From IMG/VR virus record IMGVR_UViG_3300025853_000035, positions 64,001 to 128,000 of that record: a stretch of 64,000 bases of DNA; one strand, written 5' to 3'. The stretch is from a virus. Its lineage: Duplodnaviria; Heunggongvirae; Uroviricota; Caudoviricetes. Position 1 is the first letter of the stretch. Each line of letters begins with the position of its first letter. The position numbers and the translations under genes are program-made. The notes below the pieces were generated by a model. That model worked only from the letters and a program-made list of their open reading frames with translations, made no database searches and was not told where the DNA came from. Shown one piece after another: positions 1-7,581 of the stretch.

Positions 1-11
1 GAACCGCTCCC

Positions 12-92
12 TTAGAGGGATGAACTACAATACTGGCTCTGCCAGTGTAGTTGGGTCAGCGTAAGCTGATGCAAGGCGGTCGTTGTGAACAT
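12..92 (-). CDS. Leader peptide L3 (26 aa, MFTTTALHQLTLTQLHWQSQYCSSSL), putative attenuator peptide
   Basis: Hand-translated; ATG lies 7 nt after the TATACT -10 box (leaderless); 23 of 26 residues are T/L/H/Q/W/S/Y/C. Confidence 0.8.
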   Translation of the reverse strand: MFTTTALHQLTLTQLHWQSQYCSSSL

Positions 93-99
93 GGCGTGG

Positions 100-128
100 A
101 GTATATTCAAACTTTACAGTGATGTCAA
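100..128 (-). promoter_or_regulatory. sigma70-type promoter of the L3 operon
   Basis: TTGACA (128-123), 17-bp spacer, TATACT (105-100), T-rich upstream. Confidence 0.85.
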
Positions 129-159
129 ACAAAAAATGACATTAGGTTGAAAATAGTTC

Positions 160-237
160 TGGAACCCCGTGAGGGATTCGAACCCCCGACCCTGCCGGTA
201 GAAGCGGCGCGCTCTTGATCCGCTGAGCTAACGGGGT
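160..237 (-). tRNA. tRNA-Arg(TCT)
   Basis: Cloverleaf folded by hand; anticodon loop CTTCTAC, TTCGAAT T-loop, encoded CCA. Confidence 0.93.
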
Positions 238-245
238 GTGATGTC

Positions 246-319
246 TGGTGCCGAGTGCCGAATCGAACGGCCTCTCTCGCGTTTCAAACGAGCGCTTCGA
301 CCTGCAAAGCTTACTCGGC
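246..319 (-). tRNA. tRNA-Phe(GAA)
   Basis: GCCGAGT/ACTCGGC acceptor stem, loop TTGAAAC, TTCGATT T-loop, CCA; T-stem short. Confidence 0.82.
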
Positions 320-327
320 ATAGAGGG

Positions 328-408
328 TGGAGCCGCTGACAGGATTCGAACCTGCATTTGCATCCAGTTACCTTTCTCTCCGTTCGTAGCGGAGGGGGTT
401 ACAGCGGC
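328..408 (-). tRNA. Atypical D-armless tRNA-Arg(ACG)-like RNA
   Basis: Perfect 7-bp acceptor, CTCCG/CGGAG stem with loop CTACGAA, canonical T arm and CCA, no D arm, ~22-nt extra region. Confidence 0.7.
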
Positions 409-416
409 ATTGAAAC

Positions 417-494
417 TGGTCTCGCCGACGGGATTCGAACCCGCATTGACCTGCTTGAAAGGCAAGGTTCTTAGGCCATTTAGAAGACGGCGAG
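417..494 (-). tRNA. tRNA-Glu(TTC)
   Basis: Cloverleaf; loop CTTTCAA; CCA. Confidence 0.93.
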
Positions 495-495
495 A

Positions 496-570
496 TGGTA
501 GCGCATGGGGGAATCGAACCCCCGTCTCAGGCTTGAGAAGCCCGTGTCCTGTCCGCTAGACGAATGCGCC
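496..570 (-). tRNA. tRNA-Glu(CTC)
   Basis: Cloverleaf; loop TTCTCAA; CCA. Confidence 0.92.
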
Positions 571-577
571 ATGGAAA

Positions 578-653
578 TGGCGAGAACGACGGGGTTCGAA
601 CCCGCGACAACCAGATAGACAATCCGGTGCTCTACCAACTGAGCTACGTTCCC
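578..653 (-). tRNA. tRNA-Asp(GTC)
   Basis: Cloverleaf; loop TTGTCTA; CCA. Confidence 0.93.
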
Positions 654-659
654 ATATGC

Positions 660-735
660 TGGAGCAGACGGCGAGGATCGAACTCGCGCTGCCGGAGGGT
701 GGAAACCTCCCGCTCTACCGCTGAGCTACGCCTGC
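660..735 (-). tRNA. tRNA-Gly(TCC)
   Basis: Cloverleaf; loop TTTCCAC; CCA. Confidence 0.93.
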
Positions 736-748
736 ATTGCATAAAAAC

Positions 749-823
749 TGGAGCGGGCAACGGGGTTCGAACCCGTGTCTCTGGACTGGCAGACCAGTGC
801 TCTTCCTACTGAGCTATACCTGC
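749..823 (-). tRNA. tRNA-Gly(GCC)
   Basis: Cloverleaf; loop CTGCCAG; CCA. Confidence 0.93.
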
Positions 824-1200
824 ATTTGCCTTTTCTGATGAGGATACAATCGGCTGGTGTAACCCATTTCCGCGTATGTCTTCCGGCGGTGACAGTTCGC
901 GCACCGGACGACACACTTATTGATCTCCTCGATCAGTCGAGGTAACTTTGTTCCGTCTCTGACTGCCTTAGAGACATTGAACTCCTTGGTGGCCCGATCG
1001 ACATGATCAAACTCAAGGACGATTATGTCATCTTCCCCACAGTCTATGCACGGGTGCTTGCTGAGATAGTCGATAACGTATTCTTGCGCTAACTGCCTAC
1101 GAAGAGCTTGCGCCTCAGCGGTGACTTTCCGCATCTTGGCACCGTTCTCGGCATAGTAGTTTTTCGCATAGGCACGTTTCGCCTCATCATCCCAAGCCAA
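814..1200 (-). CDS. HNH endonuclease inside the tRNA operon
   Basis: CIDCGE...LEFDH...CANCH motifs; likely TTG start at 1200 after AAGGAG; the longer ORF-track N-terminus overlaps tRNA-Lys. Confidence 0.85.
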   Translation of the reverse strand: MAWDDEAKRAYAKNYYAENGAKMRKVTAEAQALRRQLAQEYVIDYLSKHPCIDCGEDDIIVLEFDHVDRATKEFNVSKAVRDGTKLPRLIEEINKCVVRCANCHRRKTYAEMGYTSRLYPHQKRQMQV

Positions 1201-1217
1201 GCTGTCTCCTTTGTGTT

Positions 1218-1293
1218 TGGTGAACCGGGTGGGCCACGATCCCACAACCTTCGGGTTAAAAGCCCACTGCTCTGCCAATTGAGCTACCGGTCC
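1218..1293 (-). tRNA. tRNA-Lys(TTT), non-canonical T-loop
   Basis: Cloverleaf; loop CTTTTAA; T-loop ATCGTGG; CCA. Confidence 0.88.
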
Positions 1294-1307
1294 AAAGACC
1301 GGGAACA

Positions 1308-1341
1308 ACGAAAAACGCCCCACCGGGGGCGGTAGGGCGTC
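1308..1341 (-). terminator. Intrinsic terminator inside the L1 operon (putative attenuator)
   Basis: 11-bp stem ACGCCCTACCG/CGGTGGGGCGT, CCCC loop, followed by TTTTCGTT. Confidence 0.8.
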
Positions 1342-1359
1342 TAAATATCGATGCTGATT

Positions 1360-1435
1360 TGGAGGATCGACTGGGGCTTGAACCCAGCACCTGCGGAGTA
1401 AGAATCCGCCGCTCTACCTACTGAGCTATCGATCC
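1360..1435 (-). tRNA. tRNA-Lys(CTT)
   Basis: Cloverleaf; loop TTCTTAC; CCA. Confidence 0.92.
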
Positions 1436-1471
1436 GCTAAAACAGCACCGATAGCTAGGAGCACTACCGGA

Positions 1472-1534
1472 TTAGAGGCTAAAACCTCGTTCGCCGCGTT
1501 CCCGGCGATCTCGTTTGAATCCGAAGCGTTCCAT
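1472..1534 (-). CDS. Leader peptide L1 (20 aa, MERFGFKRDRRERGERGFSL), putative attenuator peptide
   Basis: Hand-translated; residues 2-18 are all E/R/F/G/K/D, the amino acids of the ten downstream tRNAs; AGGA...GAG upstream. Confidence 0.85.
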   Translation of the reverse strand: MERFGFKRDRRERGERGFSL

Positions 1535-1584
1535 GGTAGGTCTCAAAAAATCCTGTGAGGCATAATTGCCGTGAATGAAGCCGA

Positions 1585-1613
1585 ACTATACACAGCGACA
1601 GTCTGGCTGTCAA
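1585..1613 (-). promoter_or_regulatory. sigma70-type promoter of the L1 operon
   Basis: TTGACA (1613-1608), 17 bp, TATAGT (1590-1585). Confidence 0.85.
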
Positions 1614-1653
1614 CAAGAAAATTCAGAAAGGCGAACTTTTTTTTCCGGCCCGG

Positions 1654-2175
1654 TCAGAACCAGCAGTCGTTGAAGCATTGCTCCGCGATCTCGCGGTGCG
1701 TGGGAAAGCACAGATCAGCGACCTGCTCATACTCAGTGAGGAGGCCGAACTCCATGTTCTCCGGGCACAGCCGAAGCCGCTCATAGTGCCCGGCGGTCAG
1801 CACCCATGGGTTACGGAATACCGCCATCGTCTGCGCGCCGCCCGCTACCGGATAGCTCTGCACATATTCGAGGCTGTCGGCGGTTATGGTCCGGCCGGTC
1901 TCTTCCAGCCACTCACGACAAGCGGCTTGTTCGAAGGACTCACCGCGATTGACATGCCCGCCCAAGAACGCCCAGCCGCCACGGTGAGGCTCGATCGCCC
2001 GCCGGGCCATGAGAAGACCGCGCCGGCCGATGCCGACGCGAACCCGCTGGAGAACGACGACGACACCGGTGGGACTTCCCCACGTCATCGCCGAGCAGCC
2101 GGGGCACTTCATGGGATACTCGTGATCCACATGAGCCGTCCCGCAGGTCGAACAGAACAAATCCATCACGCTCAC
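1654..2175 (-). CDS. NUDIX hydrolase with N-terminal zinc ribbon
   Basis: GGHVNRGESFEQAACREWLEETG Nudix box; CxxC...CxxC. Confidence 0.9.
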   Translation of the reverse strand: MSVMDLFCSTCGTAHVDHEYPMKCPGCSAMTWGSPTGVVVVLQRVRVGIGRRGLLMARRAIEPHRGGWAFLGGHVNRGESFEQAACREWLEETGRTITADSLEYVQSYPVAGGAQTMAVFRNPWVLTAGHYERLRLCPENMEFGLLTEYEQVADLCFPTHREIAEQCFNDCWF

Positions 2176-2552
2176 TTTCTATCGTCCTGCTGACGATGCA
2201 GCATCTCGCGGATCGCCGCGAGGTCGTTCTTGATCTGCTCCTGCTCAGCATGGGTGAACGCATCACTATCCACGATCAGCTTGGCCGACATGATTGCCGT
2301 CATCACGGGAAAGGCGAAGCCCGGCCCGAAGTGCATGAGGAAGATAGCCACCCCTCGGCCGACCACCGTGACGGGATACATATCGCCGTATCCTGTCGTG
2401 GTCGCGGTGGTGAAGGCCCACCACAAGGAATCGCCAATCCCATATTTGGCTTCGGCCAGATCAAACAGCCCGGCGGCGAGGACCACGACAATGCCGTAGA
2501 CGATCGCGACGGTCAGGAAGCTCCGGCCGAGGAGGTGGACTATCTTTCTCAT
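2172..2552 (-). CDS. Two-TM potassium channel (KcsA-like)
   Basis: TM helix - WWAFTTATTTGYGDMYP pore motif - TM helix - short coiled coil. Confidence 0.92.
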   Translation of the reverse strand: MRKIVHLLGRSFLTVAIVYGIVVVLAAGLFDLAEAKYGIGDSLWWAFTTATTTGYGDMYPVTVVGRGVAIFLMHFGPGFAFPVMTAIMSAKLIVDSDAFTHAEQEQIKNDLAAIREMLHRQQDDRK

Positions 2553-2806
2553 CCCAAACCTCGCTCGCTGAGAAGGATTTTCTGGACGGACTGACCCACC
2601 ACCGAAAGGCGGAAGGTCCGATAGCCGTTATCGCTGCGAGGCCCCTCCTCGACGAGCGCCGGCCGCCGCAGCGTGTCCTTGGTCAACCGGATCGCACAAG
2701 ACTCGCTGCACCCGAGGATGCAGAAGTTCTCGTCGAGGTTGATAACCGTCGAAATTTGGCTGCGCTTGAGGCGGCCGGCGATGGAGGCGGGCGAGACGGG
2801 GGCCAT
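2549..2806 (-). CDS. Hypothetical protein
   Basis: Tightly coupled to both flanking genes in the operon. Confidence 0.5.
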   Translation of the reverse strand: MAPVSPASIAGRLKRSQISTVINLDENFCILGCSESCAIRLTKDTLRRPALVEEGPRSDNGYRTFRLSVVGQSVQKILLSERGLG

Positions 2807-2810
2807 CGCG

Positions 2811-3614
2811 TCAGCCCCCGATCACATGCGGCACGAACTTTGCCGTGTTGCTCGTGATGAGGCCGTCCTCGCGGATGCCGATACCGCACGGCTCGCCATC
2901 AACGATCCAGCTACCGATCACCGGGAAGACGCCGGGCGCGGTTTCCGGGAGACGATACATCTCCTGATAGACGTGCCCTTCCTCGCCGTAGTCGCCGCCG
3001 GTGGCCGCCAGCACATCACGATCCACGATCTCGATGTTGGCTCCCTCACGAGCCAGCAGCGGCTTCTTGACATAGGAGCCGGTCGCCGGCTTCTCGAAGC
3101 TGCTGTGGAGCAGGAAGGGGTTGCCGGGATCGAGCTTGGAGAGCAGGGGCAGGATGCCCTTGTTGCTCCACATCATCTTCCAGATCGGCTCCAGCCAGAC
3201 CATCGTATCGACGCTGTTGAACACGGCGTCGGCGTAGTCCTCGTTGACCAGCCATTCCCACGGGTAGAGTTTGAACAGGGTCGTGATGACCTCTTCGTCC
3301 AAATCAACGAAGCGCCCATCAGCCGACAGACCGATGTCTTCGATGAGGATGACCTTCGAGCCGATACCGCCGGCTGCTGCGGTGTCCCGCAGATAGGCGG
3401 TCGTCACGGTGTCTTCACCGGCATCGTCGAAGAAATGCGTGAAGTGCATTTCGCCGTTGGGGAGGAAGGGGCGGATGTCCGCCCACTTGGTGACCAGATG
3501 CTCGTGGATGGAGTTGAACTGGTCGAGGTCCGGGAAGACCTGCTCCTTCCAGCGCCACTGGATCACCGAGGCTTCCAGCAGCGAGGTCGGGGTGTCGCAA
3601 TTGAACTCGAACAT
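2811..3614 (-). CDS. Glutathionylspermidine synthase-like ATP-grasp ligase (YgiC/YjfC family), C-terminal part
   Basis: EFNCDTPTSLLEA, FKLYPWEWL, LEPIWKMMWSNKGIL, KKPLLAREGANI, PVIGSWIV motifs; frame opens at the G6 tract 3670-3675. Confidence 0.88.
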   Translation of the reverse strand: MFEFNCDTPTSLLEASVIQWRWKEQVFPDLDQFNSIHEHLVTKWADIRPFLPNGEMHFTHFFDDAGEDTVTTAYLRDTAAAGGIGSKVILIEDIGLSADGRFVDLDEEVITTLFKLYPWEWLVNEDYADAVFNSVDTMVWLEPIWKMMWSNKGILPLLSKLDPGNPFLLHSSFEKPATGSYVKKPLLAREGANIEIVDRDVLAATGGDYGEEGHVYQEMYRLPETAPGVFPVIGSWIVDGEPCGIGIREDGLITSNTAKFVPHVIGG

Positions 3615-3633
3615 CTTGGGTTCGGTCCGGCCG

Positions 3634-3960
3634 TCATAACCGAAGTCGAACCGGCCGTAGTTGAGGGCAGGGGGGTTCCTGATCCCACGCCCGGCGGATG
3701 GCGGCGTGCGCCTTCTGCGGGATGCCCATCTTCGTCAGCCATTCCCCGCTCTTGTCCCCGACGATGACATCGCCGGCTGCAAGCAGGAGGTTGTAGACGC
3801 TGCGGGTGGCCTCATCGAACAGGTCGATCTCGCCCGGCGCGAAGGAATAATAGGTTCCCTCCCGCCAGTAGGGATCGACGCCGTCGGTGTGCCAGATCAG
3901 TCCGTCATCGGCGACGGCCTGCTGCCAGTTGAGGCGCTGGGCGACCTGCTTACGGATCAA
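3634..3960 (-). CDS. Glutathionylspermidine synthase-like ligase, N-terminal part (frameshifted)
   Basis: R.NWQQ...YWREGTYYSF N-terminus typical of the family; removing one C at GAACCCCCCT joins it to LNYGRFDFGYDG. Confidence 0.82.
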   Translation of the reverse strand: MIRKQVAQRLNWQQAVADDGLIWHTDGVDPYWREGTYYSFAPGEIDLFDEATRSVYNLLLAAGDVIVGDKSGEWLTKMGIPQKAHAAIRRAWDQEPPCPQLRPVRLRL

Positions 3961-4346
3961 CCGCCGACACTCCCGAATGCCGACTTACCGAAGCCGCCGC
4001 GCGAGACAGCCGCCGCACGGGTCACGGACGAGGAAGCCGGGGCGTGGAAGTAGGTGGCACCGGGCGTGCGAGCGAAGCTGCCGCCACGCACCGGATCGCC
4101 GTGATAGGGGACTGCGGCCGACTTGCCGAGGTAATACCACATGAAGGCGTTGCCGGCTCCGCCGCCACGGTTCTGCTGGCAATAGCTGTCAGGCACGCGG
4201 CGCTTGTTCTTGTCGGTGCAGACCGCCGTGTTGCGGTCGGAATAGACGTTGTAGGACTCGTCCCACTGGTTGGCCGGGCGGCCACAGGCGCTTACCGCCA
4301 ACGCTGCTGCCAGCGTGGTGGTCAGCAGAAAAGACTTCTTCCGCAT
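3957..4346 (-). CDS. Lipoprotein, YgiB/DUF1190-like partner of the ATP-grasp ligase
   Basis: Signal peptide with lipobox VSAC; Gly/Ser/Arg tail SRGGFGKS; sits directly upstream of the YgiC-like gene. Confidence 0.75.
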   Translation of the reverse strand: MRKKSFLLTTTLAAALAVSACGRPANQWDESYNVYSDRNTAVCTDKNKRRVPDSYCQQNRGGGAGNAFMWYYLGKSAAVPYHGDPVRGGSFARTPGATYFHAPASSSVTRAAAVSRGGFGKSAFGSVGG

Positions 4347-4417
4347 AGTGATTCCCTCTGAAATTGTGAGTGAATCGCTGATACTTTAGAGACGCATAAT
4401 GTCAAGTAAAAATGACT

Positions 4418-4450
4418 GTGCCGCGAAACCTCAAAGAGGCTCGCGGCACA
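4418..4450 (-). terminator. Hairpin closing the L2 tRNA operon
   Basis: TGTGCCGCGA/TCGCGGCACA inverted repeat right after tRNA-Ile. Confidence 0.55.
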
Positions 4451-4460
4451 TGGAAGGGTA

Positions 4461-4534
4461 TGGTTGTTCTGGGAAGAATCGAACTTCCATCTGCCGATTA
4501 TCAGTCGGATGCACTACCGTTGTGCTACAGAACA
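4461..4534 (-). tRNA. tRNA-Ile(GAT)
   Basis: Cloverleaf; loop CTGATAA; CCA. Confidence 0.92.
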
Positions 4535-4543
4535 TCAACCAAA

Positions 4544-4621
4544 TGGCTGGCGTAGCTGGATTCGAACCAGCCTCAATCTCGGTTAACAGCCGAGCGCCTT
4601 CACCTAGAAGACTATACGCCA
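4544..4621 (-). tRNA. tRNA-Asn(GTT)
   Basis: Cloverleaf; loop CTGTTAA; CCA. Confidence 0.9.
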
Positions 4622-4628
4622 ATGAAAC

Positions 4629-4704
4629 TGGTGGAACAGGAGGGGATCGAACCCTCTACCTCCGGGGTGCAAAGCCGACGCTCTCCCAAGTGAGCTACTG
4701 CCCC
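4629..4704 (-). tRNA. tRNA-Ala(TGC)
   Basis: Cloverleaf; loop TTTGCAC; G3:U70 pair; CCA. Confidence 0.93.
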
Positions 4705-4816
4705 ATAAATCTGAGGGTCGGAAGGTTCCCTACTCCGCCGCCGAAGCGTGCGTAAGGGTCAAGGTTATCTCCCGGTTGCCTCTGCTCGCCAATGTTGTCC
4801 CGAGCAGACCCAAAAC

Positions 4817-4892
4817 TGGTGCTTCGTGTAGGTCCTGACCCTACGGCCTTCCGCATGTCATACGGATGCTCTACCAACTGAGCTAACGAAGC
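4817..4892 (-). tRNA. tRNA-Val(GAC), non-canonical T-loop
   Basis: Cloverleaf; loop ATGACAT; T-loop GTCAGGA; CCA. Confidence 0.85.
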
Positions 4893-4901
4893 ATATTCGG
4901 T

Positions 4902-4976
4902 TGGTGCTCGATGGAGGGACTGATCCTCCGGCCTCCGGCATGTGAAACCAGCGCTCTACCATTAAGCTAATCGAGC
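4902..4976 (-). tRNA. tRNA-Val(CAC), non-canonical T-loop
   Basis: Cloverleaf; loop TTCACAT; T-loop ATCAGTC; CCA. Confidence 0.85.
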
Positions 4977-4986
4977 ATGTTGAAAC

Positions 4987-5057
4987 TGGTAGCAGTGAGA
5001 GGATGTGCGCCTCTGGGTAGCAGGCTTATGAGGCCCGCCCCGAACTGATCCACTGCT
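4987..5057 (-). tRNA. Atypical tRNA with CAT anticodon (Met or Ile2), no D stem
   Basis: AGCAGTG/CACTGCT acceptor; GCGGGC/GCCTGC stem with loop CTCATAA; AGAGG/CCTCT T-stem with loop CGCACAT; CCA. Confidence 0.68.
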
Positions 5058-5064
5058 ATGAAAC

Positions 5065-5141
5065 TGGTCTAGCTGGCAGGATTTGAACCTGCGACCTCAC
5101 CCGTCCGAGGGGCACACGCTACCAGACTGCGCTACAGCTAG
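5065..5141 (-). tRNA. tRNA-Pro(CGG)
   Basis: Cloverleaf; loop CTCGGAC; CCA. Confidence 0.92.
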
Positions 5142-5147
5142 ATGAAA

Positions 5148-5223
5148 TGGTCAAGGTGGCCGGGATCGAACCGACGACTTCCTGCTCCCAAAGCAGGCGC
5201 TCTACCAACTGAGCTACACCGAG
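5148..5223 (-). tRNA. tRNA-Pro(TGG)
   Basis: Cloverleaf; loop TTTGGGA; two acceptor-stem mismatches; CCA. Confidence 0.85.
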
Positions 5224-5255
5224 AAACGAAAAAGGGCCGCTTTCGCGACCCTTTC
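5224..5255 (-). terminator. Intrinsic terminator between leader L2 and the first tRNA (putative attenuator)
   Basis: 10-bp stem AAAGGGTCGC/GCGGCCCTTT, GAAA tetraloop, TTTTTCGTTT tail. Confidence 0.85.
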
Positions 5256-5286
5256 GAAAAATCCCTTATGAGACGAGACGACCGGG

Positions 5287-5379
5287 TCAGTCGTCCTTCG
5301 TCGGGAGCGCGCACGCAATCACGGCCGGGACCATATTGGCCGGCGCTGCGATCATGTTGATGGCGGGAATGTTGCGCAT
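5287..5379 (-). CDS. Leader peptide L2 (30 aa, MRNIPAINMIAAPANMVPAVIACALPTKDD), putative attenuator peptide
   Basis: Hand-translated; residues 3-22 are all N/I/P/A/M/V, the amino acids of the eight downstream tRNAs; AGGA...GAG upstream. Confidence 0.87.
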   Translation of the reverse strand: MRNIPAINMIAAPANMVPAVIACALPTKDD

Positions 5380-5428
5380 GGGAAGCTCGTGAAATCCTGA
5401 AAAGCGGAGAACCGCTGTTGAAGTCCGA

Positions 5429-5457
5429 ATGATAATTGAAACTTGACTGGATGTCAA
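5429..5457 (-). promoter_or_regulatory. sigma70-type promoter of the L2 operon
   Basis: TTGACA (5457-5452), 17 bp, TATCAT (5434-5429). Confidence 0.85.
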
Positions 5458-5479
5458 GAGAAAAATTACACTGGCTATG

Positions 5480-6490
5480 AAGACACTGAACCTCGCGAAT
5501 ACGCGGGTTAGGTCGCATGTCGGGTAGTTCCGTCGGTCAACGGCTCAGCATCTACAAAGCGAGTGAAATTGTGGTCGGCTTGCTGGCACCAATCCAGAAG
5601 ACAGGTCCGCAGACCTGACCAACCAACCACGGTGATGAATATAGACAGGCTGAGACTACACCCGTTGCGATCTGTCGTTCGGAGGATTACGGAACCCTTG
5701 CGAGGCACCTTGCCACCTTATCCACCAAGCCCTCTTGCGAGTAGCCCGGTCCCAGATCAACGCCGCCTATTTTTCCCGATTCTCACGGGGCCGCTGGCAT
5801 TAGCGGCGACACTGCATGATATTCGGCGATTCCCAGACCGTTGACGTGTTACCGCCATTAAGCCCCCGCGACGGGGCAACGAACTTTCTTTCACCAACCA
5901 CTCTTCGCTTTGCCGGCTAGGAGCAGACCGCATTGGGCGAACCCTGCGGTATTAGGCGTCTTTCACATACAGTCGAAGCAATCTTTGCGTTTTGATATGA
6001 ACTGCTGGGTTCGAACCAGCGATCCACGGATTAAGAGTCCGTTGCTTTACCACTAAGCTAAGTTTGCAAGCCACCGAGACGAGCTACCTCCTAGTTCCAC
6101 TGATGTTTCCACCTGCGGAATGCTAGTCGCCTCATGTCCGTCATGTCGCTAAACACTACCAAGACCGTCGAGCAGGACCTTCACCCTACCAAACTGATCA
6201 TTGCTCTTGACCGCTAAGTCTTGAACTGATGACCTTGTGCTTTATCATCCGCTGCCGCAGGTTAGACACAAGCTCCGGGTTCTACTCCGGCGTTCGAGGT
6301 CACCGATCTGGCTCTCCTCTATCCCCTCAAGGGCCTTGTCCTGCTAACAGCCTAGCTCCCGTTACCAGAAGCGATCCTCGCGGACCTGACTGCACTTGCT
6401 TGAATTGACCGGCAAGCCGGCGGAGTTATGTGGCCATACCTCCTTTACGTTGGTTACCCAACGCTATCCCCCTCAAGCGGGGTGTTCCTG
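5480..6490 (-). ncRNA. Large structured non-coding RNA candidate (GOLLD-like), boundaries approximate
   Basis: ~1 kb with no credible ORF, own promoter, many hairpins, embedded tRNA-like fold, next to tRNA operons. Confidence 0.6.
5993..6067 (-). tRNA. tRNA-Lys(CTT)-like element embedded in the large RNA
   Basis: Canonical D arm, ACGGA/TCCGT stem with loop CTCTTAA and TTCGAAC T-loop, but mismatched acceptor stem ending TCA instead of CCA. Confidence 0.7.
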
Positions 6491-6492
6491 AG

Positions 6493-6521
6493 CCTCTAAC
6501 AACTGATTCGAGCAATGTCAA
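6493..6521 (-). promoter_or_regulatory. Putative promoter of the large RNA
   Basis: TTGACA (6521-6516), 17 bp, TAGAGG. Confidence 0.55.
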
Positions 6522-6529
6522 GTCATAAT

Positions 6530-6772
6530 TGCAAGAGGCAATCCAAAACTTACCGCGTGACAGCCTCACTTGCGCTGGGATGGCCTCCCGATTAGGGGCC
6601 GGCGATCTCGGAGCTTCCTCCGTTCTACCCGCCCTTTACTCGGAGCGTATCCATACCAGACCGGCCAGTGCTTTCGTTCATGTCCAAGTTCGACACTACT
6701 TGTCCGCAAAGTGACTCCGGCTGAGTCTGCCCCTCGGTAAATCTTGGAGCGTTCCGCATCGCTGCGGTGTGA
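6530..6772 (-). ncRNA. Candidate ~240-nt structured RNA
   Basis: Follows TTGACA(6806-6801)-17-TAGATG(6783-6778); multiple hairpins; no credible ORF. Confidence 0.4.
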
Positions 6773-6836
6773 AAGGGCATCTACATTCACAATTGCAGTA
6801 TGTCAATTAAAAAATGCAGTGCCCTCAAAAAAAAAG

Positions 6837-7007
6837 TTAGGCCGCTTCCCGAACCTGCTTCACGGCGCTCTTGTCGATGGTCTGGGGCGCATAGTCAGTC
6901 TCGGCCTCGCGCACGGTCAGGTTGAAGCCGTTGATCGCGAGCACGTCGAACCACGTCGCATCATCCAGTTTGTTGAAAGCCACCTGCTGGCCAACCTCGG
7001 GGTCCAT
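6837..7007 (-). CDS. Small hypothetical protein (56 aa, MDPEVGQQVAFNKLDDATWF...)
   Basis: Hand-translated; strong AAGGAG RBS; below the ORF-track cutoff. Confidence 0.7.
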   Translation of the reverse strand: MDPEVGQQVAFNKLDDATWFDVLAINGFNLTVREAETDYAPQTIDKSAVKQVREAA

Positions 7008-7071
7008 CTGTTTCTCCTTCTCGTTCAGGGTGGGAGGGAAGGGCGGCCTCGGTGAGGAGGCCGCCTGCCTT

Positions 7072-7581
7072 TCAGGACTTGTTGGCGAGTTCCGCCAGCG
7101 CCTCGTCGCCGCGCCAGATACGCAGGCCGGGGACTACCTCTCCGCCGGGCGTGACCGCCTCGAAGGTCTTACGCGACCAGAACAGGCACTTATGGCGCTT
7201 GCGGGCGGCGGCCAGACGGCCTTCGGCACGATCGCTGATGGGGATGAAGAAGGACGGACCCATGATCTTGCCGTCAGCGGTCTTGGTGGCCGGGGTAAGC
7301 TGGTCGAACGGATACTCTTCCGGCAGGCGCTTGCGGCCGGACTTGCCGGTCTCCATCTCCAGCACGGAGATCAGGACCTGCTTGGTGCCGCCGATCGTGC
7401 CATCGAGATCGGCAGTAGCCGTGCCAGCGCCCTGACGGACCGGAGCTTCGCTGATCTCAGCAGCCGCCGACTGGCGGGGAGCACGAGGCGTGCGCTTCGG
7501 GGCGGTCGGCTGTGGAGCGGCAACCACTTCGGAGGCGGCTGCGGTTCGGTTACGTCGGGTGGCGGTTGCTGCTTCGGTCAT
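7072..7581 (-). CDS. Hypothetical protein, possibly DNA-binding
   Basis: Ala/Arg/Pro low-complexity N-terminus, folded C-terminus with YPFDQL...SFFIP; AAGGAG RBS. Confidence 0.75.
   Translation of the reverse strand: MTEAATATRRNRTAAASEVVAAPQPTAPKRTPRAPRQSAAAEISEAPVRQGAGTATADLDGTIGGTKQVLISVLEMETGKSGRKRLPEEYPFDQLTPATKTADGKIMGPSFFIPISDRAEGRLAAARKRHKCLFWSRKTFEAVTPGGEVVPGLRIWRGDEALAELANKS

Follow-up and report, generated by a model that had tools for sequence, protein, structure and literature searches.

The leader ORF L2, on the minus strand of a 64,000-nt stretch of phage DNA (the window), is probably a ribosome-mediated (leader-peptide) transcription attenuator placed before a phage tRNA operon. 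The window comes from a phage genome of 151,382 bp (60% G+C), the nearest isolates of this large phage are the Erythrobacter phages XM05 and vB_EliS-L02, and its hosts are sphingomonad bacteria. In the proposed mechanism, transcripts from the promoter at 5457 would carry a 30-codon ORF and then a terminator ending at the first tRNA, leaving the tRNAs to be made only by read-through. A ribosome at the stop codon would mask the strand required for a candidate antiterminator (H2), resulting in termination, a ribosome held at codons 26-28 would melt the stop-codon hairpin (H1) and free H2, resulting in read-through, and with no ribosome, or with a ribosome stalled earlier, H1 and the terminator would stay, again resulting in termination. 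We infer both the translation of the L2 ORF and regulated read-through, and the purpose, judged from composition and from relatives, is likely feedback on the supply of the very tRNAs that the operon encodes; the attenuator probably lets the phage tune that supply.

On the minus strand, the order of elements is promoter, 5' hairpin, AGGATTT..GAG box, L2 ORF, stop hairpin, terminator and tRNAs, with the following coordinates in the window:

5429-5457, minus strand: sigma-70-type promoter, TTGACA (5457-5452), 17-nt spacer, TATCAT (5434-5429), from the promoter scan
5403-5416, minus strand: 5' UTR hairpin AGCGG-UUCU-CCGCU, from folding
5386-5398, minus strand: conserved AGGATTT...GAG box, a weak or atypical putative ribosome-binding region, from the alignment
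5287-5379, minus strand: leader ORF L2, 30 codons and TGA, from the sequence, intact in all nine homologues
5313-5357, minus strand: hairpin H0 inside the amino-acid run, codons 8-15 paired with codons 16-23, -17.9 kcal/mol, from folding and RNAalifold
5272-5302, minus strand: stop-codon hairpin H1 (region 1:2), with UGA in stem and loop, -17.2 kcal/mol, from folding
5247-5288, minus strand: candidate antiterminator H2 (region 2:3), -16.4 kcal/mol, from folding and shuffles
5224-5255, minus strand: intrinsic terminator (region 3:4), 11-bp stem, GAAA loop and U tract up to the tRNA, from scan and folding
4461-5223, minus strand: tRNA-Pro(TGG), tRNA-Pro(CGG), CAU tRNA-like element, tRNA-Val(CAC), tRNA-Val(GAC), 112-nt insert, tRNA-Ala(TGC), tRNA-Asn(GTT) and tRNA-Ile(GAT), the seven tRNAs from ARAGORN and Rfam
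4408-4449, minus strand: probable operon-end terminator, 9-bp GC-rich stem followed by AGTCATTTTT, with the next promoter after it, read from the sequence

The promoter had been placed at 5457-5429 in an earlier note made from the letters of the window, and it was recovered there as the best match of the promoter scan, with 11 of 12 consensus positions matched and a -35 box that is invariant in the alignment of nine homologues. The same scan returned no second promoter-like site on the minus strand from 5429 to 4461, and the tRNA genes of the L2 operon therefore depend on passing the terminator. Equivalents of the 5' UTR hairpin in relatives differ from it in sequence, as seen in the alignment. 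The ribosome-binding site consists of a 3-nt GAG only, with the conserved AGGATTT located 15-16 nt upstream of the ATG; the GAG-N6-ATG pattern previously described as common to L2 and a second leader, L1, had to be amended for L1, in which the spacing is GAG-N7-ATG. Directly upstream of the L2 promoter, a near-full-length match to GOLLD RNA (RF02032) was found at 5647-6133 (minus strand; 140.1 bits against a gathering score of 150, E 6e-38), with a tRNA-Lys(CTT) embedded at 5994-6068, and XM05 carries a similar large non-coding stretch at the place of this GOLLD-like RNA.

The leader ORF begins 43 nt downstream of the predicted transcription start and runs, as had been claimed for a 30-codon leader, from ATG (5379-5377) through 30 sense codons (MRNIPAINMIAAPANMVPAVIACALPTKDD) to TGA (5289-5287). 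Codons 3-22 (5373-5314) form a run of 20 residues (NIPAINMIAAPANMVPAVIA) made up solely of N, I, P, A, M and V, which are the amino acids of the downstream tRNAs, an enrichment of 20/20 consecutive residues from the operon's six amino acids. The codons noted earlier for the run (AAC/AAT, ATT/ATC, CCC/CCG, GCC/GCA/GCG, GTC/GTG and ATG) were confirmed from the sequence; 16 of the 20 are readable by standard wobble of the phage anticodons, and the remaining four (CCC, and GCC three times) could be read by the phage UGG and UGC anticodons only through four-way wobble. When the whole genome was translated in six frames (302,760 residues), this run proved the longest for {A,I,M,N,P,V}, a set that accounts for 0.329 of the residues in long ORFs of the genome, and no other such run reaches 12. 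Two further leaders of this genome are each likewise the genome-wide longest run for their own amino-acid set, and the third leader is matched by its predicted tRNAs, which sit immediately beyond the window (Ser, Leu x3, Thr, His, Gln x2, Ser, Cys, Trp).

Of the eight tRNAs claimed downstream, seven were called by ARAGORN and Rfam within 5223-4461; the eighth corresponds to a CAU-anticodon tRNA-like element (about 4986-5058, minus strand, in the window; 7324-7398 in contig L001), which is called neither by ARAGORN nor by the Rfam tRNA model, and whose CCA is encoded, whose D stem is all but missing and whose T loop (CGCACAU) is unusual. This element is conserved in XM05 and could decode the ATG codons of the leader, as Met or Ile2. 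Between tRNA-Val(GAC) and tRNA-Ala lies a 112-nt structured insert (4705-4816, minus strand) with a folding energy of -36.3 kcal/mol and a z-score of only -1.0; it had no Rfam match, and it is absent at the same place in XM05. In the metagenome contigs L073 and L084, behind the window-like L2, tRNA-Pro(CGG) precedes tRNA-Pro(UGG), opposite to their arrangement in the window, and these genes have atypical T loops. The probable operon-end terminator at 4408-4449 was not flagged by the terminator scan.

Pattern scans and BLAST produced an L2 family of nine distinct sequences: the window, L073 (identical to L084), XM05, vB_EliS-L02, the L004 group, L030, L033, the L052 group and L116. A tenth, L015, ends at a contig edge and is kept outside the nine, and the DNA pattern scans mostly hit unrelated ORFs by chance. 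Among isolate phages, the searches recovered L2 only from XM05 and vB_EliS-L02. All nine keep the promoter, the 5' hairpin, the ATG and an intact ORF of 28-31 codons with in-frame indels, and in all nine the distance from stop codon to tRNA is 63-67 nt, with a stop-codon hairpin of varying sequence and a strong terminator with covarying stems at the same place. More copies of the window type were sought in viral contigs and none was found; L073 (and the identical L084) is the sole independent near relative for comparing H1 and H2.

The hairpin within the run, H0, emerged from the alignment with RNAalifold and shows compensatory pairs (column pair 119:139, for example, is GC in four sequences and AU in four); the terminator was recovered too, and H0 energies across the homologues range from -15 to -19 kcal/mol. 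The stop-codon hairpin, H1, has the form GACGA-AG-GACGACUG / ACC / CGGUCGUC-UCGUC, with an outer 5-bp and an inner 8-bp stem giving 13 bp, and its 5' arm lies within codons 26-30. GACGAC (5295-5290) and GTCGTC (5282-5277) do flank the stop codon, as had been described, but the stem is longer than described, spanning 5302-5272. In L073/L084, the outer stem of H1 is GAUCA:UGAUC, with two compensatory pairs that change residues 27-28 from Thr-Lys to Ile-Asn. H1 can be extended by pairing of UCCC (5306-5303) with GGGA (5265-5262), giving -20.7 kcal/mol, and the extended hairpin closes directly before UUUUU (5261-5257).

The candidate antiterminator, H2, is a 13-bp composite hairpin in which GACCC/UCG/GUCUC is paired with GGGAU/CGA/GGGUC; it overlaps H1 in its 5' half and the terminator in its 3' half. 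The complementarity between TGACCC (5289-5284) and GGGTCG (5251-5246) pointed out earlier is real, with one G-U pair, and forms the outer helix of H2, so the antiterminator is stronger than the 6 bp first proposed. H2 stabilises the terminator 5' arm by 12.7 kcal/mol, compared with 5.5 +/- 2.4 kcal/mol in dinucleotide shuffles of the post-stop segment, a strength reached by 1.3% of shuffles for the window and by 2% for L073, where H2 has an energy of -15.0 kcal/mol with the middle re-paired. The GAAA-capped terminator is present and adjoins the start of tRNA-Pro(TGG) at 5223, but its stem (5255-5230, -17.8 to -18.4 kcal/mol, followed by the tail TCGTTTCT) has 11 bp and not 10. H1, H2 and the terminator are thus of similar strength (-17.2, -16.4 and -18.4 kcal/mol), and folding predicts for the window copy of L2 a genuine 1:2 / 2:3 / 3:4 layout of overlapping hairpins.

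To follow the effect of a translating ribosome, 26 nt were masked around each A-site codon, and the transcript was folded as far as the loop of the terminator. An A site on codon 26, 27 or 28 (CCG, ACG and AAG, encoding Pro-Thr-Lys) gave H2 a probability of 0.96, 1.00 or 0.79, respectively, and every other A-site position gave 0.00; a ribosome at codons 29-31 masks the H2 strand itself. The probability of H1 was 0.99 without a ribosome and at codons 1-25. The question raised earlier, whether the antiterminator can outcompete the local hairpin, is answered by folding: at 13 bp and -16.4 kcal/mol it can compete, but only once H1 has been opened. With the 3' arm present, the terminator is favoured at equilibrium at every ribosome position, and antitermination would therefore have to be kinetic. 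The operon serves only Pro among the trigger codons, and not Thr or Lys; the trigger codons of L073 are Pro-Ile-Asn, all cognate to the operon.

These results bear most directly on the wiring put forward in the earlier note, by which a ribosome stalled anywhere in the N/I/P/A/M/V run would free TGACCC for pairing with GGGTCG and block the terminator, so that a shortage of the operon's own tRNAs would switch the operon on. The complementarity it relied on extends, as described above, to the 13-bp composite hairpin, and the composition of the run argues for sensing. A similar arrangement is present in L1 (1436-1533 and 1313-1352, minus strand), where the post-stop hairpin region, from 2 nt after TAA, is complementary to a stretch just before and within the L1 terminator, itself located past the first tRNA-Lys (-21.6 kcal/mol, z -2.8), indicating that post-stop antiterminator strands are used in this phage. 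Against this wiring, a ribosome at codons 1-25, which cover the sensor run (codons 3-22), leaves H1 at 0.99 and H2 at 0.00, with H1 and the terminator intact; H1 (-17.2 kcal/mol, or -20.7 kcal/mol when extended) arises before H2 and is no less stable; and a his-type relay, from H0 to the 5' arm of H1, was sought by folding, with no pairing found between the run and that arm that would open the inner stem of H1. We consider this wiring unlikely for the window. By the folding model, the 20-codon cognate run would not be the trigger in the window copy, and, judged by folding only, it is not a stall at the regulatory codons, and nowhere else, that exposes the antiterminator there.

Three other pairings were tried for the window and rejected. 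The best duplex between the leader ORF and region 3, which would be an in-ORF antiterminator, has an energy of -17.8 kcal/mol and equals shuffles (z 0.2); pairing of codons 23-26 (CGCG..CCC) with the terminator arm GGG.CGCG amounts to only 6-7 kcal/mol, at chance level; and pairing of the 5' UTR segment UUUCACGA with the terminator arm and loop UCGCGAAA amounts to about 3 kcal/mol across 160 nt, which is unconvincing. If L2 is an attenuator, the window copy may sense mainly codons 26-28, it may use kinetic effects invisible to equilibrium folding, for instance pausing at the U run that follows H1 or the moment at which the ribosome is released, or it may have partly lost its coupling to the run.

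The U run after H1 also admits an inverse or gating logic, in which timely translation would let RNA polymerase escape a hairpin-dependent pause at 5261-5257, and slow decoding would lower, or merely time, tRNA transcription. Folding does predict H1 and the terminator with the ribosome absent or held in the run, and the extended H1 before UUUUU, with its 5' arm in codons 25-30, resembles a pause site or weak terminator. As a first terminator, however, the extended H1 with U5 was rejected, being unflagged by the scan and made poor by a 6-nt bulge, and is a possible pause site only. Such a logic would moreover impose positive feedback on tRNA supply, without obvious benefit, and it runs counter to the classical wiring of the relatives and of the Caulobacter phage CcrRogue, described below, in which a stall in the run exposes an antiterminator. 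We regard it as a little more doubtful still than the wiring of the earlier note.

In the seven other L2 homologues, the attenuator is wired within the ORF. There, the 3' strand of H0 (codons 15-24) is paired with the spacer and the terminator 5' arm at -31 to -38 kcal/mol, with z-scores of -3.6 to -5.1 against shuffled leaders, and the strands of this antiterminator differ in sequence, on both sides, between XM05, L052 and the L02 group. With a ribosome at codons 8-13, the terminator arm of the relatives gains 15-20 kcal/mol of alternative pairing, and with a ribosome over codons 15-19 the gain is about 5 kcal/mol only, such that the relatives are predicted by this folding to follow the full classical logic, with a stall on region 1 inside the run exposing region 2. 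The in-ORF duplex is absent from the window and L073 (-17.8 and -15.5 kcal/mol; z 0.2 and 0.9, at shuffle level), and the window lineage has remodelled the 3' half of the device. A simple equilibrium model also predicts that an untranslated leader would give part read-through in the relatives and termination in the window.

An independent in-ORF unit was found in CcrRogue (phiCbK-like; L035, 5610-5960), comprising a promoter, a leader (MSKSYRQFVQIQVVRNFR...), a stop hairpin and a terminator, with an antiterminator duplex of -39.1 kcal/mol (z -5.4). Its leader contains a run of R/Q/F/V/I and precedes tRNAs Phe, Val, Ile, Ile, Val, Gln, Gln and Arg. The in-ORF units of the relatives, together with this independent unit, indicate that the device is widespread in large phages of Alphaproteobacteria; in the Ruegeria phage RpAliso, a crude screen gave no leader match. 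Between its terminator and tRNA-Phe, CcrRogue carries another tRNA-like stretch. The tail of its leader, DDGGTFI, resembles the tail of the XM05 L2, GDGGTAF, despite different codons, a likeness that may hint at a role of the tail peptide or of its RNA.

The same comparisons weigh on the view that L2 involves no regulation, the hairpin and U tract being a leaky insulator or an element for processing or stability of the tRNA precursor, and the ORF being a gene for a small hydrophobic peptide or an untranslated relic whose composition matches the tRNAs by chance. The L2 peptide is indeed hydrophobic (rich in A, V, I, M and P), as small membrane peptides are, and its ribosome-binding site is weak. 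Chance is difficult to reconcile with three leaders of this genome and the independent CcrRogue leader that each match their own downstream tRNA set, with each leader of this genome being the genome-wide longest run for its set, with substitutions among homologues that stay within the amino-acid set, including an Ala to Val change forced by a compensatory H0 pair, and with antiterminator complementarity in the relatives at 4-5 sd above shuffles. Among the readings weighed here, we give this one the least credence.

The attenuator reading can be carried further, to L2 as one of three codon-census attenuators that jointly cover all 20 amino acids and tie the transcription of every phage tRNA block to the decoding speed of the codons that it serves, a demand-sensing feedback on tRNA supply that could turn on the phage's tRNAs when those of the host run short or are destroyed; the window lineage would have moved the antiterminator strand from the ORF to the stop codon, and to this extended form we assign an even chance. 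The in-ORF antiterminators of the relatives and the candidate post-stop antiterminator of the window are natural variants for comparing how such a switch can be wired.

Leader-peptide attenuation is textbook for amino-acid operons, and multivalent attenuators are known from enterobacteria, where the ilvGMEDA leader senses Ile, Leu and Val and the thr leader senses Thr and Ile. Like L2, the ilv and thr leaders have, close to their promoters, an ORF of roughly 30 codons in which regulatory codons for several amino acids are numerous and a non-regulatory tail follows, an intrinsic terminator, and overlapping protector, antiterminator and terminator hairpins with the stop codon in the first hairpin. 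L2 differs from them in being phage-encoded, in sampling six amino acids, in having predicted trigger codons (26-28) outside the cognate run, and in regulating tRNAs rather than biosynthetic enzymes, such that the sensed quantity would be product supply itself. With trpL, which together with the ilv and thr leaders comes closest to L2 among known systems, it shares three mutually exclusive hairpins of similar strength, of which the terminator is thermodynamically the strongest, and, by prediction, a narrow ribosome window that frees region 2 and termination on an untranslated leader; antitermination in trpL is also kinetic. The control codons of trpL, however, lie exactly in region 1, whereas region 1 of L2 encodes Pro-Thr-Lys-Asp-Asp and the cognate codons lie upstream, in H0.

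The pheST leader (pheM) resembles L2 as a case of leader-peptide attenuation of a component of the translation apparatus, an aminoacyl-tRNA synthetase, but it is chromosomal, controls a protein gene and senses one amino acid. T-box riboswitches are likewise cis-acting leaders coupling tRNA status to terminator read-through, but bind uncharged tRNA directly and need no ORF; for T-box, other riboswitch families and Rfam cis-regulators, no match was found at positions 1-7500, at gathering threshold or at E <= 1. A coupling attenuator of the pyrBI type was rejected, as the ORF does not run through the terminator, its stop codon being 31 nt upstream of the terminator stem. A literature search found no publication in which tRNA genes are controlled by a leader peptide.

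Why phages carry tRNA genes, and how these are controlled, is an old question. If L2 works as proposed, the phage would measure decoding speed directly and adjust its own tRNA output, which would bear on codon-usage adaptation, host shut-off and escape from tRNA-cleaving defences.

Several smaller features were seen around L1. The L1 post-stop segment is also able to pair with the 5' end of the first tRNA-Lys, with a compensatory change in XM05. An aberrant tRNA (331-408, minus strand; 32.8 bits), whose anticodon loop is ACG-like and which also has a long extra region, occupies the place at which XM05 and L02 carry tRNA-Arg(ACG) and tRNA-Arg(CCG), and the Arg codons of the L1 leader are all CGN. 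Inside the L1 operon, between tRNA-Lys(TTT) and tRNA-Gly, an ORF at 830-1200 (minus strand) has Cys- and His-rich motifs and looks like a homing (HNH-type) endonuclease.
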